The notes under the pieces are model-generated. The model was not told the origin of the DNA. It saw nothing but the letters and a program-made list of their open reading frames with translations, and made no database searches. Position numbers and translations under genes: made by a program. Of a DNA stretch of 64,000 nucleotides, positions 5,344 through 24,745 are shown piece by piece. This DNA is from Escherichia coli (GTDB lineage Bacteria; Pseudomonadota; Gammaproteobacteria; Enterobacterales; Enterobacteriaceae). Location: assembly GCF_044324785.1 (NCBI RefSeq), contig NZ_CP172127.1; one strand, given 5' to 3'. Within the stretch, counting starts at the first letter, position 1; each line of letters opens with the position of its first letter.

Positions 5344-8300
5344 ATGATTACTATTGACGGTAATGGCGCGGTTGCTTCGGTGGCGTTTCGCACCAGTGAA
5401 GTTATCGCCATCTACCCTATTACCCCCAGTTCCACGATGGCAGAACAGGCTGATGCATGGGCCGGAAACGGCTTGAAAAACGTCTGGGGAGACACACCAC
5501 GCGTGGTTGAAATGCAGTCGGAAGCAGGTGCTATCGCTACCGTGCATGGCGCTTTGCAGACGGGTGCCCTTTCAACATCGTTTACGTCATCGCAGGGTTT
5601 GCTGCTGATGATCCCGACGCTGTACAAACTGGCAGGCGAACTCACACCGTTTGTCCTACATGTAGCGGCACGTACCGTTGCCACACATGCACTCTCTATT
5701 TTTGGCGATCATTCCGACGTCATGGCGGTGCGCCAGACGGGTTGCGCGATGTTGTGTGCGGCAAACGTCCAGGAAGCGCAAGACTTTGCTCTCATTTCGC
5801 ACATCGCGACGCTGAAAAGCCGCGTGCCATTTATTCATTTCTTTGATGGTTTCCGCACGTCCCACGAAATCAATAAAATTGTCCCGCTGGCCGATGACAC
5901 GATTCTTGATCTCATGCCGCAGGCCGAAATTGATGCTCATCGCGCCCGGGCACTCAACCCGGAACATCCGGTGATCCGCGGTACGTCCGCCAATCCTGAC
6001 ACTTATTTCCAGTCTCGCGAAGCCACCAACCCCTGGTACAACGCGGTCTATGACCATGTTGAGCAGGCGATGAATGATTTCGCTGCCGCGACAGGTCGTC
6101 AGTATCAGCCGTTTGAGTATTACGGGCATCCGCAAGCTGAACGAGTGATTATCCTGATGGGCTCAGCCATTGGCACCTGTGAAGAAGTGGTTGATGAATT
6201 GCTAACCCGTGGCGAAAAAGTCGGCGTGCTGAAAATTCGCCTGTACCGCCCCTTCTCAGCCAAACACTTGCTACAAGCTCTGCCGGGATCCGTACGCAGC
6301 GTGGCGGTACTGGACAGAACCAAAGAACCCGGTGCCCAGGCAGAACCGCTCTATCTGGATGTGATGACCGCACTGGCAGAAGCCTTTAATAATGGCGAGC
6401 GCGAAACCCTGCCCCGTGTCATTGGTGGGCGCTATGGTCTTTCATCCAAAGAATTTGGCCCGGACTGTGTACTGGCGGTATTTGCCGAGCTCAACGCGGC
6501 TAAACCGAAAGCGCGCTTTACGGTTGGTATTTACGATGATGTGACCAATCTGTCACTGCCGTTGCCGGAAAACACCCTGCCAAACTCGGCGAAACTTGAA
6601 GCCTTGTTTTATGGCCTTGGTAGTGATGGCAGCGTTTCCGCGACCAAAAACAATATCAAGATTATCGGTAATTCCACGCCGTGGTACGCACAGGGCTATT
6701 TTGTTTACGACTCCAAAAAGGCGGGCGGCCTGACGGTTTCTCACCTTCGCGTGAGCGAGCAGCCGATTCGTTCCGCTTATCTCATTTCCCAGGCTGATTT
6801 TGTTGGCTGCCACCAGTTGCAGTTTATCGATAAATATCAGATGGTTGAACGTTTAAAACCTAGCGGCATTTTCCTGCTCAACACGCCGTACAGCGCAGAT
6901 GAAGTGTGGTCGCGCTTGCCGCAGGAAGTTCAGGCCGTGTTAAACCAGAAAAAAGCGCGCTTCTATGTGATTAACGCGGCGAAAATCGCCCGCGAATGTG
7001 GCCTGGCGGCCCGTATTAATACCGTCATGCAGATGGCTTTTTTCCATCTGACGCAAATTCTGCCTGGCGATAGCGCCCTCGCAGAATTGCAGGGTGCGAT
7101 TGCCAAAAGTTACAGTAGCAAAGGTCAGGATCTGGTGGAGCGCAACTGGCAGGCTCTGGCGCTGGCGCGTGAATCCGTAGAAGAAGTTCCGTTGCAGCCG
7201 GTTAATCCGCACAGCGCCAATCGACCGCCTGTGGTTTCCGATGCCGCTCCTGATTTCGTGAAAACCGTTACCGCGGCGATGCTCGCCGGGCTTGGTGATG
7301 CCCTCCCCGTTTCGGCGCTGCCGCCAGACGGCACCTGGCCGATGGGCACCACGCGCTGGGAAAAACGCAATATCGCCGAAGAGATCCCCATCTGGAAAGA
7401 GGAACTCTGTACCCAATGTAACCACTGCGTCGCCGCTTGCCCACACTCAGCTATTCGCGCAAAAGTGGTACCGCCTGAAGCGATGGAAAACGCCCCTGCC
7501 AGCCTGCATTCGCTGGATGTGAAATCGCGTGATATGCGCGGGCAGAAATATGTCTTGCAGGTGGCACCGGAAGATTGCACCGGCTGTAACCTGTGCGTCG
7601 AAGTTTGCCCGGCGAAAGACCGTCAGAATCCAGAGATTAAAGCCATCAATATGATGTCGCGCCTGGAACATGTCGAAGAAGAGAAAATCAATTACGATTT
7701 CTTCCTCAACCTGCCAGAAATCGACCGTAGCAAACTGGAACGTATTGATATTCGTACATCGCAGCTGATTACACCGCTGTTTGAATATTCAGGTGCTTGC
7801 TCCGGTTGTGGCGAGACGCCGTATATTAAATTGCTGACTCAGCTCTATGGCGACCGGATGTTGATCGCTAACGCCACGGGCTGTTCTTCAATTTATGGCG
7901 GTAACCTGCCCTCTACACCGTATACTACCGATGCCAACGGTCGAGGACCGGCATGGGCGAACTCGCTGTTTGAAGATAACGCCGAATTTGGCCTTGGTTT
8001 CCGCCTGACGGTCGATCAACACCGTGTCCGCGTGCTGCGTCTGCTGGATCAATTTGCCGATAAAATCCCGGCTGAATTACTAACTGCGTTGAAATCAGAC
8101 GCCACGCCAGAGGTTCGTCGTGAACAGGTTGCAGCTTTACGCCAGCAACTCAAAGATGTTGCCGAAGCACATGAACTGCTACGTGACGCAGATGCGCTGG
8201 TGGAAAAATCAATCTGGCTGATTGGCGGCGACGGCTGGGCTTACGATATCGGCTTTGGCGGTTTGGATCATGTATTGAGTTTGACAGAAAACGTCAACAT

Positions 8301-10399: not shown

Positions 10400-10426
10400 C
10401 TGCTTATTCTTCCTCCTTTGATCTAA

Positions 10427-10942
<516 letters not shown>

Positions 10943-16523: not shown

Positions 16524-17087
16524 TCAACGACTGCGCTTAGCGTGGCGCTCCCAGTTTTCTTGCTTCGCCTGCGCCGTTTTACGTAGTGCGACGTAACACG
16601 CCCCGCTGCCGCCATGATGCGGTAGCGCGGTGCAATATGCCTGAACATCATCAAATTCGGTCAGCCAGCGCGCCACATAGCTGCGGACAATATTGGCATG
16701 CGATTTATCATCCCGCCCTTTACCATGAATAATCAGCACGTTACGCAAACCATCCGCCAGGGCTTGTTGAATAAAACTGAACACCATTTTGCGGCACTCT
16801 TCCACCGGCTGGCGCAAAAGATTCAGGCTCGCCTGTTGCGGATATTTACCACTGCGCAGCTTATCCAGCACCCCATGTTGCAACCCTTCCCGCCGAAACT
16901 CCAGCGGCTGACTTAGTGGGATGATGTCGAGAAATCCGGTGGTGAGGAAATTATCAAGCTGCAGCGTGTCGATACGCTGCGGCGCACGTTGGTTACGCGT
17001 TGGATGCCAGTGGACATCGGTAGCACGTTTCAGCGGCTGGACATCTTCCATGGCGTCAAGAAACAGCGATTTGTCGTCAAGGTTCAT
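16524..17087 (-). CDS. smrA: Smr-domain DNA endonuclease SmrA (YdaL)
   Basis: 187-aa ORF MNLDDKSLFLDAMEDVQPLKR... with an Smr-domain core (LIIHGKG). Confidence 0.9.
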   Translation of the reverse strand: MNLDDKSLFLDAMEDVQPLKRATDVHWHPTRNQRAPQRIDTLQLDNFLTTGFLDIIPLSQPLEFRREGLQHGVLDKLRSGKYPQQASLNLLRQPVEECRKMVFSFIQQALADGLRNVLIIHGKGRDDKSHANIVRSYVARWLTEFDDVQAYCTALPHHGGSGACYVALRKTAQAKQENWERHAKRSR

Positions 17088-17281
17088 GTAACCTCCTATG
17101 CACCTTCACACGTCGTGATTCAGACGGGTTAATTGTTCATACTTACTGCATCGTTCCCTTCACAGATTGAAACAATACTCTACTTCATACCTGTGAGTAT
17201 CTGCGCAGGCGGGGCATTTTATACTAGCCTGTTAGCAGTATCGAACAGTTTAGCCCGAGTTTAATTCAGCACAGGCTCCGA

Positions 17282-18796
17282 TCAGGATGATTTATTCATA
17301 GCAGGAACCAACAAAAATGCGATAAATAACAGACCACTGATTAGCAGAAAGGTATCCGAAAATGCCATAGTTTGCGCCTCCCTCAGCATCAATTGACTTA
17401 ATAATTTGGTTGAAGCCAGTATTTCCGATGTCTGGTCACTTCCACTGCGATTAAAAAACAAAGCACTTCTGGAAATGAAGTCATTCACCGTATGGGGAAC
17501 AGAAACCATTTTTTCACCCATTCTCGAAAAATGAAAATTAGTTCGATTATTGAGAATAGAGCCACACAGGGCAATACCAATCGCGCCCCCAAGATTACGT
17601 GTTAAATTAAATACACCAGAGGCTAACTTCAGCCGTTCTTTTGGAATTCCCCCCAGCGTTAATGTTACGATGGGGGCCATCGCAAACTGCTGCGAAATCC
17701 CTCTAATTGCCTGTGGAAACAGTAACTCCTGCCATCCCCATTCGTGGGTTATCGGGGTAAAAAGATACATTGAAAACACAAATCCACCCAGCCCCGCCAT
17801 CAACAGCCATCGCAGATTTATTTTTTTACTTAACCAGAAGTAAAAGGGAACAGAAAATAACTGGAAAATACCTGTTGTGCAAACGGCAAAACCTATCTCT
17901 TCGGCATTTAATCCGCGAACCTGCCCCAAAAACACAGGTATTAAATATACAGTAGAGAATATCCCAACCCCTCCAGAAAAAGAAAAAAAACATCCCAGCG
18001 TGAAATTTTTATCCTTAAAAGCATGAAGATCCATTATCGGATTGGATATTGTAAGTGTACGCACAGCAAATAAAATAAAACTCACCAATGCCAGAACTGA
18101 TGTCAGCAAAATAGTATTATCATCCAGCCATCCCCAGCGCGCTCCTTCTTCAACGGTATATTCCAGACATCCCAGTGTCATGGCCAACAGGATAATACTC
18201 GGATAATCAGCAACTTTCAGTAAAGAGAGATCAGGTTTATCAAAATTAACCAGAAAAGGAATACTCAAAACTAAATATATGCCAGGTAATATATTGATAT
18301 AAAATAGCCATCGCCAGTCGAGATTATCAGTGATCCAGCCCCCCAGAGTTGGCCCTAGCGTCGGTGACAGTGAGGCCAGCGCACTGACTACCGCAGCAGC
18401 CAACCCCAGCTCTTTACCCTGGTAATAAATAAACGCCGTCGTGAAAACTAAAGGGATCATGGATGCGCCAGCCGCTCCCTGTAAAGCACGAAACAAAATC
18501 ATGATCTGAATATTCCATGCAAGTCCACACGCGATACTCATTAAAGTAAATATTCCCGCGGATAGAGTAAAAAGCCAACGAGTGGAAAATACCCGTGACA
18601 GCCACCCAGAGAGCGGAATAACAATAATCTCAGCAATTAAATAGCTGGTCTGAAGCCAGGCCATTTCGTCTTTACCTGCGGACAGACCACCACCTATTTC
18701 ATTTAGGGATGACGATACAATTTGAATATCAAGCTGAGCAATAAATAATCCCATACACATACTGGCGAAAGCAATATGTTTACGCATAGACATCAT
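17282..18796 (-). CDS. MFS drug:H+ antiporter, DHA2 (EmrB/QacA-like, ~14 TMS)
   Basis: 504-aa, highly hydrophobic ORF. The N-terminal region LDIQIVSSSLNEIGGGLSAGKDEMAWLQTSYLIAEIIVIPLSGWLS resembles the EmrB/EmrY signature. Its ATG overlaps the upstream stop (ATGA), suggesting translational coupling. Confidence 0.85.
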   Translation of the reverse strand: MMSMRKHIAFASMCMGLFIAQLDIQIVSSSLNEIGGGLSAGKDEMAWLQTSYLIAEIIVIPLSGWLSRVFSTRWLFTLSAGIFTLMSIACGLAWNIQIMILFRALQGAAGASMIPLVFTTAFIYYQGKELGLAAAVVSALASLSPTLGPTLGGWITDNLDWRWLFYINILPGIYLVLSIPFLVNFDKPDLSLLKVADYPSIILLAMTLGCLEYTVEEGARWGWLDDNTILLTSVLALVSFILFAVRTLTISNPIMDLHAFKDKNFTLGCFFSFSGGVGIFSTVYLIPVFLGQVRGLNAEEIGFAVCTTGIFQLFSVPFYFWLSKKINLRWLLMAGLGGFVFSMYLFTPITHEWGWQELLFPQAIRGISQQFAMAPIVTLTLGGIPKERLKLASGVFNLTRNLGGAIGIALCGSILNNRTNFHFSRMGEKMVSVPHTVNDFISRSALFFNRSGSDQTSEILASTKLLSQLMLREAQTMAFSDTFLLISGLLFIAFLLVPAMNKSS

Positions 18797-19824
18797 CTCT
18801 CATCAACACTGACGGTGACGGACAGTCCCGGGCGAAGAAGTTGCTTTAATTCCTTTGCGTCGTCAAATGCAATCCGTACCGGGACACGCTGAACAATTTT
18901 GGTGAAATTGCCAGTGGCATTTTCTATCGGAATCAAGCTGAAACTGGCTCCTGTCGCTGGGGAAAGGCTTTCAATGTGACCGTGAAACACTTCCCCTTTG
19001 AGAATATCAGCACGGATCTCAGCCTTCATTCCTGGCTTCATTCCCGCTATTTGGTTTTCTTTATAATTTGCATCAACCCACAACTCACTGACTGGTACTA
19101 GTGAAACTAACGATGTGCCGCCTTCCACCCAACTGCCTGTATGGGCGCTGCGGTTTGCGACAATGCCATCAATCGGCGCACGAACAAGGGTATATTCCAG
19201 ATCCAGTAGTGCCTGAGTCAAAGCGGCCTGAACTTCTTCGATACTTGCACGTACGTTTTCTTCCTGAGCAGATAAAACTGCCAGCCGTTGCTTCTCCACC
19301 ATGAAATCGTTCGCGGCTTTGCGCTCCTTTGCTGCGACCTGCTGGTAGTCAAACCTGGCGTTATCAATAATTTGTTGCGATATTGCCGCTGATTGTGCGA
19401 GTTTTTCATAACGTTCAGTATCTCGCAGGCGCTTTTGCTCCTCATGTTTTACTGCCTGCCATGTTTCACTGGCACTTTGAATTATCGACTGCTGCATCGC
19501 AATAGTGGCTTGAATGCTTTCGAGATTGGCTTTGCTACTTTTTATTTTTGCCTCAAGCCTGGCGACATTTGCACGATAATCCCGATCATCGAGACGCAGG
19601 ATAATATCGCCTTTTTTTACGCTCTGATTATCGCGCACCTCTATAGCAGAAATATAACCAGAAACTTTACTTGCCACCGTGGTGATATTACCACCAATGT
19701 AAGCATCATCCGTCGTCTGTATAAATCTTCCTTTGCTTACCCACCAGATAAAAAAGACAACGCCAGCCAAAATAATACCGATCGCTACCACCCCAATAAG
19801 CTGTTTTTTAGAAATTATCATCAC
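18793..19824 (-). CDS. HlyD/EmrA-family periplasmic adaptor (membrane fusion protein)
   Basis: 343-aa ORF with an N-terminal TM anchor, then TDDAYIGGNITTVASKVSGYISAIEVRDNQSVKKGDIILRLDDRDY (biotinyl-lipoyl-like hairpin typical of EmrA) and a long coiled-coil middle. Confidence 0.85.
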   Translation of the reverse strand: MMIISKKQLIGVVAIGIILAGVVFFIWWVSKGRFIQTTDDAYIGGNITTVASKVSGYISAIEVRDNQSVKKGDIILRLDDRDYRANVARLEAKIKSSKANLESIQATIAMQQSIIQSASETWQAVKHEEQKRLRDTERYEKLAQSAAISQQIIDNARFDYQQVAAKERKAANDFMVEKQRLAVLSAQEENVRASIEEVQAALTQALLDLEYTLVRAPIDGIVANRSAHTGSWVEGGTSLVSLVPVSELWVDANYKENQIAGMKPGMKAEIRADILKGEVFHGHIESLSPATGASFSLIPIENATGNFTKIVQRVPVRIAFDDAKELKQLLRPGLSVTVSVDER

Positions 19825-19917
19825 TCTTTACACCGTATATATCCGGAAACTTGCATTCGTCATATTTAAAATTTAACATGGCTTATTTGATGATTTCTGA
19901 CAAAATACCTACTGTAA

Positions 19918-20733
19918 ATGACAATCACACTGCAACCCAAAGCATCACCAGGGCATCACATTATCGGACTGGATTCGGAACATCTGAATGGAGGCACAGT
20001 TCCCTGGCATAAACATCTCTATGCCCAGTTGCTTTACCCGGCTGAAGGAGTCGTTCGTGTATGGGCTGGAGAAAGCGTCTGGCTAGTCCATGCCAGCAGC
20101 GCGCTTTGGCTGCCCCCACAAATGCCGCATAAGTTTGTTGCGACAGGCAACGTACTTTTAAAAACCGTACTGGTTTCAGAAGCGGAAAGTGAAACGCTGG
20201 GAAAAGTTTGCTTCATGACGGGTATTTCACCCCTGTTAAGAGAATTACTAATTGCAATTAACCAACTTCCACCGTCGCAAAGTACCACAGATAAACAACA
20301 GTTACGTTTTTCAGCCCTCGAGACACTGATACTTCAGGAAATAAAAATGGGGGTGAAAATGTCACTTGAACTCCCTTGGCCAAATGATGAGCGGCTACAG
20401 CAGCTTTGTGAGAATTTGCTAAACAACCAAGGGTATCTACCAACACTGGATAATCTAGCGGATAAAATTAACGTCAGTAGCCGTACACTCATGCGCTTAT
20501 TTGTTAAAGAGACGGGATTAACATTTCGCCACTGGGTTCAGCAAATGCACGTTATTTCTGCAGTGACGCTTCTTGATGATGGATATTCGTTGACCAAAAT
20601 TGCCCATCGTCTGGGCTATGCCTCAGCTGAATCGTTCGGCAATATGTTTAAGCGTCGAACGGGCTACTCGCCCGGTAAATTTACTCGTCGATTAACGATG
20701 CATGATTATGCAATCACAAGACAAATGATTTAA
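19918..20733 (+). CDS. AraC/XylS-family transcription regulator (N-terminal cupin-like sensor + C-terminal double HTH)
   Basis: 271-aa ORF. The C-terminus LADKINVSSRTLMRLFVKETGLTFRHWVQQMHVISAVTLLDDGYSLTKIAHRLGYASAESFGNMFKRRTGYSPGKF is a typical AraC HTH_18 region. It is divergent from the efflux pair across a 93-bp intergenic region. Confidence 0.85.
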   Translation: MTITLQPKASPGHHIIGLDSEHLNGGTVPWHKHLYAQLLYPAEGVVRVWAGESVWLVHASSALWLPPQMPHKFVATGNVLLKTVLVSEAESETLGKVCFMTGISPLLRELLIAINQLPPSQSTTDKQQLRFSALETLILQEIKMGVKMSLELPWPNDERLQQLCENLLNNQGYLPTLDNLADKINVSSRTLMRLFVKETGLTFRHWVQQMHVISAVTLLDDGYSLTKIAHRLGYASAESFGNMFKRRTGYSPGKFTRRLTMHDYAITRQMI

Positions 20734-20803
20734 CTTATATTTTCGTGAAATCTGTCACTGAAGAAAATTGGCAACGGATGGGTAAAACCGTTATAACACT
20801 GTC

Positions 20804-20897
20804 ACCGGTCACCAGGACCCCAGGCCGGATTTAAGACGAGGATGCACTGCTGTGTGTACTGTAGAGTCTGGCGGATGTCGACAGACTCTATTTTTTT
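20804..20897 (+). ncRNA. mcaS: McaS (IsrA) sRNA, variant allele
   Basis: ...GGATTTAAGACGAGGATGCACTGCTGTGTGTACTGTAGAGTCTGGCGGATGTCGACAGACTCTATTTTTTT matches remembered McaS, including the terminator hairpin (AGAGTCTG...CAGACTCT + T7). A TATAAC -10-like hexamer lies about 7 nt upstream of 20804. It is adjacent to abgR as in K-12. The 5' end is approximate. Confidence 0.78.
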
Positions 20898-20905
20898 ATG
20901 CAGTT

Positions 20906-21814
20906 TTAACTTTGCAGATAGCCGCATTCTCGCCGAAATTGCGTGATTAATGACGCGGTCAGTGGTGTCTGGCGACTATCACGCCGCTGAATCAAATAAT
21001 AGGTCGCTTTCGGTAAAATTTCGCTAACCGGCAACATCACCAGCCCCTGTCCGTGCAAGGGATCGCAGCCCATTTCTTCAGGTAGTATGCTGAGAAAATC
21101 GCTTTTTGCCACCAGACTGATACAGGCTGAGAACGTCTCGCAGACTACGCCGACCTGTGGCGTTTGCGCCTGATCGTCAAGCAATTCACTCAAGTGTTTG
21201 TAGTAGCTGCCGTGTGGCGTCGGCATTGTCCAGCTGTAGTCCAGTAACTGTTTGATCGAACGGGCACCAATGGCGGGATGTCCCGGGCGGCAAAAGATCG
21301 CGAATTGTTTTTCCAGTAATTTCTCAAAAGTAAATTCGTGGTCGTAGGGTCCCTGATAATAGGTATTGATGGTGAAATCCAGTTCCCCCTGGCGCAATTC
21401 ATTAATCATCGATACCAGTTGCCCTTCCATAATGCGTACTTTTACCTGCGGATGCTGCTGATGAAAACGAGATATGACAGCTGGCATCAGACTGCGGGAA
21501 ATACTGGCCCCCATGCCGATATTAATTTGCCCTGCCAGTTGCCCTTGTCGTTGGCGAATATCCTCTTGCGCTGCGCGCAGCTCTTCAAGAATAAGACTGG
21601 CGTGCTGATAAAAACTTTCACCGGCATCAGTTAACGTCACGCCTTTACTACGGCGAAAAAAGAGTTGTGCCGCCAACCCTTCTTCCAGCTCCTGAATAGA
21701 TTTACTCAGTGCCGGTTGCGACATATTCAACATTCGGCTCGCTCCGCGAATGCTGCCCTGACGAGCCACTTCAACAAAAGCCCGAATTTGATGAATTTTT
21801 ACCTGAAAAGCCAT
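20906..21814 (-). CDS. abgR: LysR-family regulator AbgR
   Basis: 302-aa ORF MAFQVKIHQIRAFVEVARQGSIRGASRMLNMSQPALSKSIQELE..., divergent from abgA. Confidence 0.94.
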   Translation of the reverse strand: MAFQVKIHQIRAFVEVARQGSIRGASRMLNMSQPALSKSIQELEEGLAAQLFFRRSKGVTLTDAGESFYQHASLILEELRAAQEDIRQRQGQLAGQINIGMGASISRSLMPAVISRFHQQHPQVKVRIMEGQLVSMINELRQGELDFTINTYYQGPYDHEFTFEKLLEKQFAIFCRPGHPAIGARSIKQLLDYSWTMPTPHGSYYKHLSELLDDQAQTPQVGVVCETFSACISLVAKSDFLSILPEEMGCDPLHGQGLVMLPVSEILPKATYYLIQRRDSRQTPLTASLITQFRRECGYLQS

Positions 21815-21989
21815 GACGCCACCGATAACCGTTATTTATCAGACCAAAGAAACTGGCATCTACTTTAATGCAGATGATTGTGTCAGGGTAATTTATGAAC
21901 GGTTAAAACTGTGAAAAATCAGTTAGTGATAAGTAAAAACTATCGCTACGTGAACCGGGTCACACTTTTTACTGATGACGGGAAAGGTT

Positions 21990-23300
21990 ATGGAGTCTTT
22001 GAATCAATTTATTAATTCGCTTGCCCCAAAATTATCGCACTGGCGACGTGATTTTCACCACTATGCAGAGTCTGGCTGGGTGGAATTCCGCACTGCCACC
22101 CTTGTTGCGGAAGAATTGCACCAGCTCGGTTATTCACTGGCGCTGGGCCGCGAAGTAGTTAATGAAAGTAGCCGGATGGGATTACCTGATGAATTCACTC
22201 TACAACGCGAATTCGAGCGCGCTCGTCAACAGGGTGCGCTAGAACAATGGATTGCGGCTTTTGAAGGCGGTTTCACTGGCATCGTCGCTACCCTGGATAC
22301 CGGTCGCCCCGGTCCGGTGATGGCTTTCCGTGTCGATATGGACGCGCTGGATCTCAGTGAAGAACGGGATGTCAGCCATCGCCCCTATCGCGACGGTTTT
22401 GCGTCATGTAACGCCGGAATGATGCATGCCTGTGGTCATGATGGACATACCGCCATTGGGCTTGGGCTGGCGCATACCCTTAAACAGTTCGAGTCCGGAC
22501 TACATGGCGTCATCAAACTGATTTTTCAACCTGCAGAGGAAGGTACGCGTGGCGCGCGGGCGATGGTCGATGCAGGAGTAGTGGATGATGTTGATTATTT
22601 TACTGCCGTGCACATTGGCACTGGTGTACCTGCGGGCACAGTAGTGTGCGGCAGTGATAATTTTATGGCAACCACCAAATTTGACGCGCACTTCACCGGG
22701 ACCGCCGCTCACGCAGGCGCAAAACCAGAAGACGGTCACAATGCCTTGTTGGCGGCAGCACAAGCAACTCTTGCACTGCATGCAATCGCCCCGCACAGCG
22801 AAGGCGCTTCCAGAGTAAACGTGGGCGTTATGCAGGCAGGAAGCGGTCGTAATGTTGTTCCCGCCTCAGCGTTGCTGAAAGTGGAAACACGCGGGGCCAG
22901 CGACGTCATTAATCAATATGTTTTTGACCGTGCACAACAAGCGATTCAGGGCGCAGCAACCATGTATGGTGTCGGCGTTGAAACTCGTCTGATGGGTGCA
23001 GCTACCGCCAGTTCTCCTTCGCCGCAATGGGTCGCATGGTTGCAAAGTCAGGCAGCTCAGGTCGCCGGGGTCAATCAGGCCATTGAACGTGTTGAAGCGC
23101 CTGCGGGTTCCGAAGATGCCACATTAATGATGGCCCGCGTGCAGCAACATCAAGGGCAAGCCTCCTATATGGTGTTTGGCACACAGCTGGCGGCAGGTCA
23201 TCACAACGAAAAATTCGATTTTGACGAGCAGGTTCTCGCTATTGCCGTCGAAACGCTGGCGCGCACCGCGCTCAATTTTCCCTGGACGCGAGGTATCTGA
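21990..23300 (+). CDS. abgA: p-Aminobenzoyl-glutamate hydrolase subunit A (M20 peptidase)
   Basis: The ATG at 21990 gives MESLNQFINSLAPKLSHWRRDFHHY... and the 436-aa K-12 length. Confidence 0.93.
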   Translation: MESLNQFINSLAPKLSHWRRDFHHYAESGWVEFRTATLVAEELHQLGYSLALGREVVNESSRMGLPDEFTLQREFERARQQGALEQWIAAFEGGFTGIVATLDTGRPGPVMAFRVDMDALDLSEERDVSHRPYRDGFASCNAGMMHACGHDGHTAIGLGLAHTLKQFESGLHGVIKLIFQPAEEGTRGARAMVDAGVVDDVDYFTAVHIGTGVPAGTVVCGSDNFMATTKFDAHFTGTAAHAGAKPEDGHNALLAAAQATLALHAIAPHSEGASRVNVGVMQAGSGRNVVPASALLKVETRGASDVINQYVFDRAQQAIQGAATMYGVGVETRLMGAATASSPSPQWVAWLQSQAAQVAGVNQAIERVEAPAGSEDATLMMARVQQHQGQASYMVFGTQLAAGHHNEKFDFDEQVLAIAVETLARTALNFPWTRGI

Positions 23301-24745
23301 TGCAGGAAATCTATCGTTTTATCGACGATGCGATTGAAGCCGATCGCCAACGTTATACCGATATTGCCGATCAAATCTGGGATCATCCAGAAACACGTTT
23401 TGAAGAGTTCTGGTCAGCGGAGCATCTGGCTTCGGCGCTGGAGTCTGCAGGCTTCACCGTTACCCGCAACGTAGGCAATATCCCAAATGCCTTTATTGCT
23501 TCGTTTGGTCAAGGCAAACCGGTTATCGCCCTGCTGGGGGAATATGACGCCCTGGCAGGTTTAAGTCAGCAAGCCGGTTGCGCGCAACCTACATCCGCGA
23601 CGCCCGGTGAAAATGGTCACGGTTGCGGACACAATTTGCTGGGAACCGCCGCCTTTGCCGCAGCAATAGCCGTCAAGAAATGGCTGGAACAATATGGGCA
23701 AGGCGGCACGGTGCGCTTTTATGGTTGTCCTGGCGAAGAAGGCGGCTCGGGTAAAACGTTCATGGTCCGCGAGGGGGTATTTGATGATGTGGATGCGGCA
23801 CTCACCTGGCACCCGGAAGCCTTTGCCGGTATGTTCAATACCCGCACGCTGGCAAACATTCAGGCATCATGGCGCTTTAAAGGGATCGCAGCACATGCCG
23901 CGAACTCCCCTCATTTGGGACGCAGCGCCCTTGATGCCGTAACGTTGATGACCACTGGCACCAACTTCCTCAACGAACATATTATTGAAAAAGCGCGCGT
24001 ACACTATGCCATCACAGATAGCGGCGGGATCTCGCCCAACGTGGTCCAGGCGCAGGCAGAAGTGCTTTATCTTATCCGCGCCCCCGAAATGACCGATGTG
24101 CAGCATATTTATGATCGGGTCGCCAAAATCGCCGAAGGTGCGGCATTGATGACCGAAACCACGGTTGAATGCCGCTTCGACAAAGCCTGTTCCAGTTATC
24201 TCCCGAATCGCACCTTAGAAAATGCCATGTACCAGGCCCTATCCCATTTTGGTACCCCGGAATGGAACTGCGAAGAACTGGCTTTTGCGAAACAAATTCA
24301 GGCTACGCTCACCTCCAACGATCGGCAAAACAGTCTGAATAATATCGCCGCAACCGGTGGCGAAAACGGCAAGGTTTTTGCACTACGTCATCGTGAAACG
24401 ATACTGGCGAATGAAGTCGCTCCATATGCCGCCACCGATAACGTGCTTGCGGCATCGACTGATGTCGGCGACGTCAGTTGGAAACTGCCTGTTGCCCAGT
24501 GTTTCAGCCCCTGTTTTGCCGTCGGTACACCGCTACATACGTGGCAACTGGTTAGCCAGGGGCGAACATCTATTGCTCATAAAGGAATGCTGCTGGCGGC
24601 GAAAACTATGGCAGCAACCACAGTCAATCTCTTCATTGATTCAGGGCTATTGCAAGAATGCCAACAAGAGCATCAGCAAGTTACGGACACGCAACCGTAT
24701 CACTGCCCTATCCCGAAAAACGTGACACCGTCACCTTTAAAATAA
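23300..24745 (+). CDS. abgB: p-Aminobenzoyl-glutamate hydrolase subunit B (M20 peptidase)
   Basis: 481-aa ORF MQEIYRFIDDAIEADRQRYTDIADQIWDHPE.... Its start overlaps the abgA stop (TGATG). Confidence 0.94.
   Translation: MQEIYRFIDDAIEADRQRYTDIADQIWDHPETRFEEFWSAEHLASALESAGFTVTRNVGNIPNAFIASFGQGKPVIALLGEYDALAGLSQQAGCAQPTSATPGENGHGCGHNLLGTAAFAAAIAVKKWLEQYGQGGTVRFYGCPGEEGGSGKTFMVREGVFDDVDAALTWHPEAFAGMFNTRTLANIQASWRFKGIAAHAANSPHLGRSALDAVTLMTTGTNFLNEHIIEKARVHYAITDSGGISPNVVQAQAEVLYLIRAPEMTDVQHIYDRVAKIAEGAALMTETTVECRFDKACSSYLPNRTLENAMYQALSHFGTPEWNCEELAFAKQIQATLTSNDRQNSLNNIAATGGENGKVFALRHRETILANEVAPYAATDNVLAASTDVGDVSWKLPVAQCFSPCFAVGTPLHTWQLVSQGRTSIAHKGMLLAAKTMAATTVNLFIDSGLLQECQQEHQQVTDTQPYHCPIPKNVTPSPLK

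Follow-up and report, generated by a model that had tools for sequence, protein, structure and literature searches.

The 64,000-nucleotide stretch of an Escherichia coli chromosome analysed here (the window, contig NZ_CP172127.1) carries, between smrA and the gene of the small RNA (sRNA) McaS, a module of three open reading frames (ORFs). This module is probably a self-contained, horizontally acquired efflux cassette that entered the gap between mcaS and smrA in a single insertion, was later spread by recombination of its flanks, and encodes an inducible, TolC-dependent pump resembling EmrAB. The three ORFs span positions 17282-20733, with zntB, dgcM and smrA on one side and McaS, abgR, abgA and abgB on the other. 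From left to right, the features are:

17097-17281, minus strand: left-end spacer of about 185 nucleotides (nt), from the pump stop codon to smrA; homology to K-12 stops at about 17096.
17282-18796, minus strand: pump ORF, 504 amino acids (aa), an EmrB-like efflux permease of the DHA2 family of the major facilitator superfamily (MFS).
18793-19824, minus strand: adaptor ORF, 343 aa from a GTG codon, a membrane-anchored periplasmic protein of the HlyD/EmrA type.
19825-19917, no strand assigned: divergent control region, 93 bp.
19918-20733, plus strand: regulator ORF, 271 aa, AraC/XylS family, NimR-like.

The original prediction, made from the letters of the sequence, had described a 504-aa DHA2 pump coupled through an ATGA overlap to a 343-aa HlyD/EmrA adaptor, and an AraC-family regulator with a cupin-like N-terminus, divergent from the pair across 93 bp. 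ORF coordinates and family models agree with this description: all three proteins match the models expected of them (MFS_1/EmrB, HlyD and HTH_18), and the divergent gap is that given above. The stop codon of the adaptor gene overlaps the start of the pump gene by 4 nt (ATGA, 18793-18796), which suggests that the two are translationally coupled. PGAP places the adaptor start at an ATG one codon later (19821), giving a protein of 342 aa. The module had also been described as AT-rich, and its G+C content is 44.1%, against 50.2% for the window and 54.3% for smrA; the pump, adaptor and regulator genes have 42.2%, 46.2% and 45.5%, respectively, and sliding windows within the module range from 39 to 48%.

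Insertion of this DNA, as opposed to its loss from K-12, is strongly supported. The three genes are not found at the K-12 locus, or elsewhere in K-12; in W3110, the mcaS/abgR region comes directly after smrA, as had been stated in the original prediction, which left it open whether the module is a strain-variable insertion or a deletion in K-12. The outgroups Citrobacter rodentium, C. koseri and Salmonella have neither the abg genes nor the module, and in them ogt and smrA are immediate neighbours. Some 85 nt adjoining smrA in K-12 can be aligned with the sequence upstream of smrA in Citrobacter and Salmonella. The window has lost this ancestral sequence, except for the Shine-Dalgarno region. 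K-12 thus keeps ancestral sequence that is absent from the module haplotype, and for this reason cannot be a deletion derivative of it. Together with the right boundary described below, these comparisons bear out both the strain variability and the insertion that had been suggested, and speak against the deletion.

The right edge falls between 20697 and 20698, where homology to K-12 resumes. Orthologous regulators end at about aa 262, which is aligned with codon 261 of the E. coli gene, and the E. coli protein carries a tail of 11 extra codons (MHDYAITRQMI, codons 261-271, 20698-20733), the first of which begins at 20698. Judged by this alignment, codons 261-271 are core flank DNA and not cassette DNA. 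Cassette homology at the DNA level across genera (Kluyvera, Salmonella, Providencia) extends from 17295-17297 to 20695-20697, and in a Salmonella assembly it stops just before the stop codon of the regulator gene. Since cassette homology ends where the orthologues stop, the incoming DNA must have ended at the last sense codon of the regulator gene, whose reading frame now continues into the core chromosome. The segment that diverges from K-12 thus runs from about 17097/17099 to 20697, a 3.6-kb insertion that replaced about 110 nt; this refines the extent of 17088-20803 given in the original prediction. As we read it, the locus is an entry point defined to the base for a cassette devoid of mobility genes.

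One could also suppose that the module is ancestral to E. coli and that K-12, along with phylogroups A, B1 and E, simply deleted it. Its presence at one site, with identical junctions, in many lineages (B2 among them) as well as in E. ruysiae fits this idea. So, at first, did the roughly 36 nt of the regulator 3' end that K-12 seemed to retain in the first alignment, and that would have marked it as a deletion product. Those 36 nt are core flank, however: the orthologues stop exactly there, the cassette homology ends there, and the outgroups share the smrA upstream sequence of K-12 that the module haplotype lacks. In addition, synonymous divergence (dS) is 2 to 10 times lower in the module than in its flanks. 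We regard ancestral presence followed by deletion as very improbable.

The left edge has features of its own. The spacer (17097-17281) has no homology to K-12, nor to the cassettes of Kluyvera, Salmonella and Providencia. It was considered as the remnant of a gene, and no convincing similarity was seen to the genes that neighbour the other cassettes; folded as RNA, it does not exceed shuffled sequence in stability (z = -0.59). Each edge of the inserted segment has a copy of the pentamer ATGCA (17098-17102 and 20698-20702), and K-12 has a single copy, at the right edge. The pair could be a weak trace of microhomology used in illegitimate recombination, or could be due to chance.

At a coverage of at least 80%, the module is found in 1316 of the 5426 complete E. 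coli genomes (24%), in one copy each and always at this locus; all but two of the places that match the module lie on chromosomes. The flanks match in 5387 of the 5426 genomes. Carriage on plasmids was considered and dismissed, as the only close matches in PLSDB are mislabelled chromosomal records (NZ_CP134663.1 and CP054253.1), one of 4.9 Mb and the other of 252 kb with fnr, smrA, dgcM, zntB and dbpA. Three architectures of the locus were observed. In 313 genomes, as in the window, the module is accompanied by intact abgR and abgABT. In a second arrangement, seen in strain SF-468 and in E. ruysiae, it is followed by a C-terminal abgR stump (10408-10766 of the SF-468 locus) and then by ogt, abgA, abgB and abgT being missing; about 1000 genomes would have this arrangement, a figure obtained by subtraction only. 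The third, without the module, is that of K-12 W3110 and of most genomes. SF-468 is a bloodstream isolate, which we take to belong to B2/ST95, and IHE3034 is another carrier.

Comparison of the window with E. ruysiae, which carries these three genes and has both junctions identical to those of E. coli, gives dS values of 0.77 for zntB, 0.86 for dgcM and 0.35 for smrA in the flank, against 0.13 for the pump, 0.15 for the adaptor and 0.07 for the regulator. The same relation holds between the window and SF-468 (0.01-0.04 for the module genes, about 0.08 for the core flanking genes). Because its dS is below that of the flanks, the module thus appears to be younger than the lineages that carry it. 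The smrA gene of the window is identical to that of K-12, though K-12 is module-free. The module has probably moved among lineages by homologous recombination through the flanks.

The unit made up of the regulator gene and the divergent adaptor-pump pair is also found in Kluyvera cryocrescens, K. intermedia, Providencia rettgeri and Salmonella assemblies, each time in a different context and with a DNA identity of 70-73%. In K. cryocrescens it lies between an SDR/LysR gene pair and an arginase gene, in K. intermedia beside ychF-pth, in P. rettgeri among toxin-antitoxin and reductase genes, and in the Salmonella assemblies beside an RTX type-I secretion locus. It thus seems that the three genes move together, with no recognisable mobility genes. 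Beyond the cassette itself, the nearest relatives of the pump (50-63% identity) are those of Pantoea, Cupriavidus, Ralstonia, Rhizobium, Paraburkholderia and alphaproteobacterial metagenome-assembled genomes. Their local regulator is of the HxlR-like, MarR or TetR type, and some of the operons include the gene of an outer-membrane factor (OMF).

The pump scores 406 bits against TIGR00711 (efflux_EmrB, DHA2 subfamily; cut-off 230.2), over model positions 3-480 of 485, and matches Pfam MFS_1 at 1.4e-40. Being above the subfamily cut-off, it is assigned by its sequence to the DHA2 (EmrB/QacA) family. Over residues 12-497 it shares 28% identity with K-12 EmrB, and it matches EmrB chain 8zal of the PDB with E = 5.8e-56. 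The sequence PTLGPTLGG, at residue 145, resembles antiporter motif C. By a crude hydropathy scan, the protein has about 13-14 transmembrane segments (TMS), and the end-to-end alignment with the 14-TMS EmrB supports 14. The C-terminus is conserved in Kluyvera and in alphaproteobacteria.

The adaptor has the architecture of adaptors of tripartite pumps: an N-terminal anchor, lipoyl and beta-barrel domains, and a long alpha-hairpin. It matches HlyD_D23, HlyD_3 and Biotin_lipoyl_2 of Pfam above their cut-offs, and its single hydrophobic segment is N-terminal (residues 9-27). With EmrA it shares 31% identity; the alignment covers residues 17-341 and crosses the hairpin region with few gaps. The match to EmrA chain 8zar of the PDB is at 2e-43. 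At residues 138-149, the adaptor carries the sequence RYEKLAQSAAIS, an instance of R-x3-L-x6-S, the hairpin-tip motif of AcrA and MacA, by which these adaptors contact TolC. The motif is conserved in the orthologues of the adaptor and in a Paraburkholderia homologue whose operon contains an OMF gene, and its presence is suggestive of contact with TolC.

The regulator meets the definition of an AraC/XylS protein, with a C-terminal double helix-turn-helix (HTH) and an N-terminal cupin effector domain. HTH_18 is matched over residues 180-258 (78 bits, 6.9e-22); AraC_binding (34.9 bits) and Cupin_2 (29.7 bits, residues 25-88) are above their cut-offs as well. Its full-length match to NimR (YeaM) shows 32% identity over 234 aa (E = 4e-34). 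As nimR lies at another locus in K-12, beside nimT, the regulator is best classed as a homologue of NimR, a paralogue and not the orthologue. NimR is a single-target regulator of the AraC family, its target being the nimR/nimT intergenic region (PMC5934670); according to a review, it activates the MFS exporter NimT (PMC7355843). Orthologues of the regulator in Kluyvera, Salmonella assemblies and Providencia are 63-79% identical to it. Remoter homologues (36-44%), in Acinetobacter and in an Oxalobacteraceae genome, are divergent from genes of 12-TMS MFS proteins.

In an alignment of E. coli, E. ruysiae, Kluyvera, Salmonella and Providencia, the half of the 93-bp region that is proximal to the regulator gene is strongly conserved. 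A promoter-like site for the pump operon is found on the minus strand (19918-19890), and two copies of the hexamer TGACAA are spaced by 21 bp (19898 and 19919); we put this pair forward as a candidate feature of the control region, by way of hypothesis only. The region presumably contains a binding site for the regulator and two promoters.

Taken together, these data lead us to propose the following scheme. A single insertion between mcaS and smrA, within the Escherichia lineage, would have brought in the three-gene cassette in place of some 110 nt upstream of smrA, and homologous recombination of the flanks would later have spread it among lineages of E. coli and to E. ruysiae. The NimR-like regulator would sense a small molecule through its cupin domain, act on the 93-bp region and switch on the adaptor-pump operon, in which the ATGA overlap would couple translation of the two genes. 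The DHA2 protein, presumably a proton antiporter with 14 TMS, and the EmrA-type adaptor would recruit the chromosomally encoded TolC via the hairpin tip to form a tripartite pump like EmrAB-TolC, and this pump would expel a hydrophobic or amphipathic xenobiotic.

Several observations weigh against this scheme. The mobility of the cassette is left unexplained: there are no tRNA genes in the 10-28 kb interval of the window and no terminal direct or inverted repeats at the module ends. Nor is an integrase, an insertion sequence (IS) or any other mobility gene found beside the module, where the flanking genes are all core genes; these negative searches agree with the original prediction, which had seen neither integrase, IS nor tRNA. 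The locus thus lacks the signature of a classical genomic island or mobile element (a tRNA target, direct or inverted repeats at the ends, an integrase or a transposase); it does share with islands a variable presence, a deviant composition and the occupation of other loci in other taxa. The relationship to EmrAB is distant. The pump is below the cut-off of the EmrB equivalog model NF000391 (220 bits against 925), and the adaptor, though it covers positions 2-334 of the 334 of the EmrA/EmrK subfamily model TIGR00998, scores 267.4 bits against a cut-off of 390.8. Because these scores fall so far below the cut-offs, the two proteins are to be considered distant paralogous relatives of EmrB and EmrA, not orthologues. 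No strict match to R-x3-L-x6-S is found in E. coli EmrA itself, and for this reason the motif of the adaptor counts as supportive only. Searches of the literature by protein accession, gene neighbours and product names yielded no paper on the module and no specific gene name for it. Finally, the DNA target of the regulator, its action as activator or repressor, the use of TolC and the class of substrate are what we infer from sequence relationships.

The use of TolC deserves separate mention, as the pair might instead work without it, either by moving its substrate across the inner membrane only or with another outer-membrane channel. The original prediction had noted that an OMF gene is missing, and indeed there is none in the cassette or in the 14-25 kb of neighbourhood examined; this absence and the position of the adaptor below the EmrA/EmrK cut-off would both suit a TolC-free pump. 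E. coli pumps that depend on a membrane fusion protein generally use TolC, however. Moreover, the adaptor aligns over its full length, hairpin included, with the EmrA of a solved EmrAB-TolC complex and possesses the conserved R-x3-L-x6-S motif, and an OMF gene forms part of the operon of a Paraburkholderia homologue with 52% identity. A TolC-independent mode of action is, on balance, quite unlikely.

Signs of decay also count against a working cassette. A further 141 genomes, among the 1457 carriers in all, have only a partial module; internal deletions are seen in some genomes, and many truncated variants of the proteins exist. The adaptor gene of a Shigella flexneri-type genome is split by a 1.68-kb element of the IS91 family (transposase domains Y2_Tnp and Zn_Tnp_IS91; positions 5928-7611 of loci L005 and L006), which is flanked by a 4-bp duplication, and a 1-nt deletion in the pump gene alters the C-terminus of the protein. 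The pump gene of strain N3, which RefSeq labels "frameshifted", has two 1-nt deletions in C7 runs (locus L002, 3842-5295), which may be real or may be sequencing errors. The low G+C content makes silencing by H-NS possible. Within E. coli, the ratio of nonsynonymous to synonymous divergence (dN/dS) of the module, computed from few substitutions only, is 0.25-0.3, above that of the core neighbours. All this would be expected of a silent relic, a piece of AT-rich foreign DNA held down by H-NS and on its way to pseudogenisation. Yet about 90% of the carriers have retained 80% or more of the module, with an identity of at least 99%, and none of the ORFs is disrupted in the window, SF-468 or E. ruysiae. 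For the module genes, the comparison of E. coli with E. ruysiae gives a dN/dS of 0.09-0.15 (0.09-0.17 in another computation), which indicates purifying selection, and orthologues are conserved across genera. The "frameshifted" flag set by RefSeq/PGAP on the pump gene of SF-468 (locus L003, 6842-8297) was discarded as an artefact, the gene showing no indels relative to the window and an intact ORF of 504 aa. That the cassette is a relic is therefore, in our opinion, unlikely.

As to the substrate, the pump might be dedicated to the export of a metabolite or signal that the cell itself makes, for instance a quorum molecule, a siderophore or a compound resembling a fatty acid, and not to that of a xenobiotic. 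In some systems, pumps made of an MFS protein and a membrane fusion protein do export endogenous products, and a local, ligand-sensing regulator is in keeping with a specific substrate. The Pantoea homologue that stands beside a fabF paralogue also fits this possibility. The cassette, on the other hand, travels alone: in the five genomic contexts compared, it shows no consistent linkage to biosynthetic genes. An Asp/Glu racemase gene beside the pump gene in both Pantoea and Salmonella had looked like a wider shared context, and was rejected since the two racemases are unrelated to each other. A role in endogenous export seems distinctly improbable to us, and expulsion of a xenobiotic remains the function that we favour. 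In Pantoea sp. At-9b, a gene for a 63%-identical pump is located on a megaplasmid (locus L036, 5527-6804), preceded by the gene of an HxlR-like regulator and followed by a co-directional second fabF (beta-ketoacyl-ACP synthase II). EmrAB exports thiolactomycin, an inhibitor of FabB/F. The fabF neighbour might thus hint at an inhibitor of fatty acid synthesis as a possible substrate, and is one lead only.

The two genes that adjoin the insertion are:

16524-17087, minus strand: smrA, core gene, 194 nt downstream of the pump gene and co-directional with it.
20804-20899, plus strand: McaS sRNA, directly to the right of the insertion (Rfam RF00115, 113.5 bits).

The insertion removed the upstream region of smrA that is conserved in K-12, Citrobacter and Salmonella, so that smrA now follows the pump gene in the same orientation. 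No minus-strand terminator is predicted between the two, where one promoter-like site is present (17244-17216). Because the native upstream region is lost and no terminator is predicted after the pump gene, smrA may be regulated differently in module-carrying strains. On the other side, the window, SF-468 and E. ruysiae have in common a module-linked allele of McaS. It differs from that of K-12 at about 10 positions in the first stem-loop (20804-20830), ACCGGTCACCAGGACCCCAGGCCGG versus ACCGGCGCAGAGGAGACAATGCCGG, and at a single position beyond it, the remainder of the sRNA being the same. The promoter-proximal flank of McaS (20698-20803) has also diverged from K-12. Farther to the right, the mcaS-abgR-abgABT block (20804-24745) is, like the module, absent from the outgroups. 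Given that ogt directly adjoins smrA in C. rodentium, Salmonella and C. koseri, this block would itself be an insertion made in the Escherichia lineage, and the ogt-smrA gap looks like a site of repeated gene gain.

A bolder version of our proposal can be imagined, in which the cassette is an inducible, specific exporter of a gut- or host-derived toxin that aids the carrier lineages, many extra-intestinal pathogenic B2 strains among them, and in which its insertion rewired the neighbours, with loss of the native smrA promoter, possible read-through from the pump operon and a distinct McaS 5' stem-loop allele that travels along. We consider this a long shot.

The knowledge of efflux in E. coli has been built almost entirely on K-12, a strain that is without this pump. 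As the pump is common, being present in about a quarter of the complete genomes, including bloodstream and urinary isolates of B2, and yet is missing from the strain on which that knowledge stands, it is a candidate contributor to intrinsic tolerance, be it to drugs, bile, fatty acids, or plant and microbial toxins. The association of an EmrAB-type tripartite pump with a NimR-like AraC sensor would make a compact sensor-pump unit. The locus also offers a clean worked example of how the entry of a cassette can replace the promoter of a neighbour and lengthen the reading frame of the cassette's own regulator. The system is an uncharacterised member of a well-known type of pump, so that its value is incremental and the understanding of such pumps is unchanged. 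What is new here is the direction of the event (insertion), the right edge at base level, the loci in other genera, the low dS of the module and the NimR-like nature of the regulator.

It is instructive to compare the module with known systems. Like EmrAB-TolC, it is a two-gene operon in which the adaptor gene precedes the pump gene and that has no OMF gene of its own; both proteins align over their full length with those of EmrAB, the pump being a DHA2 protein with a sequence resembling motif C and the adaptor a membrane-anchored protein with a long hairpin. It differs from EmrAB in that the identity is only 28% (pump) and 31% (adaptor), both proteins falling below the EmrB and EmrA equivalog cut-offs, and in that it is accessory and AT-rich, not core. 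The regulators differ too: that of EmrAB is the MarR-type EmrR, encoded upstream in the same direction, whereas here a divergent gene encodes an AraC/NimR-like protein. The EmrAB-type operons of soil and plant Proteobacteria (Paraburkholderia, Cupriavidus, Rhizobium, Pantoea At-9b) have pumps 50-63% identical to this one and the same adaptor-pump order. No AraC partner was detected next to these operons, which have MarR, TetR or HxlR-like regulators and, in some cases, an OMF gene (Paraburkholderia) or a fabF paralogue (Pantoea). On the regulatory side, the closest parallel is with NimR-NimT (YeaM-YeaN), where a regulator with a cupin domain and a double HTH is likewise encoded divergently from an MFS exporter; the transporter that it faces in the module, however, is a DHA2 pump, probably of 14 TMS, with a periplasmic adaptor, whereas NimT is a 12-TMS protein of 393 aa.

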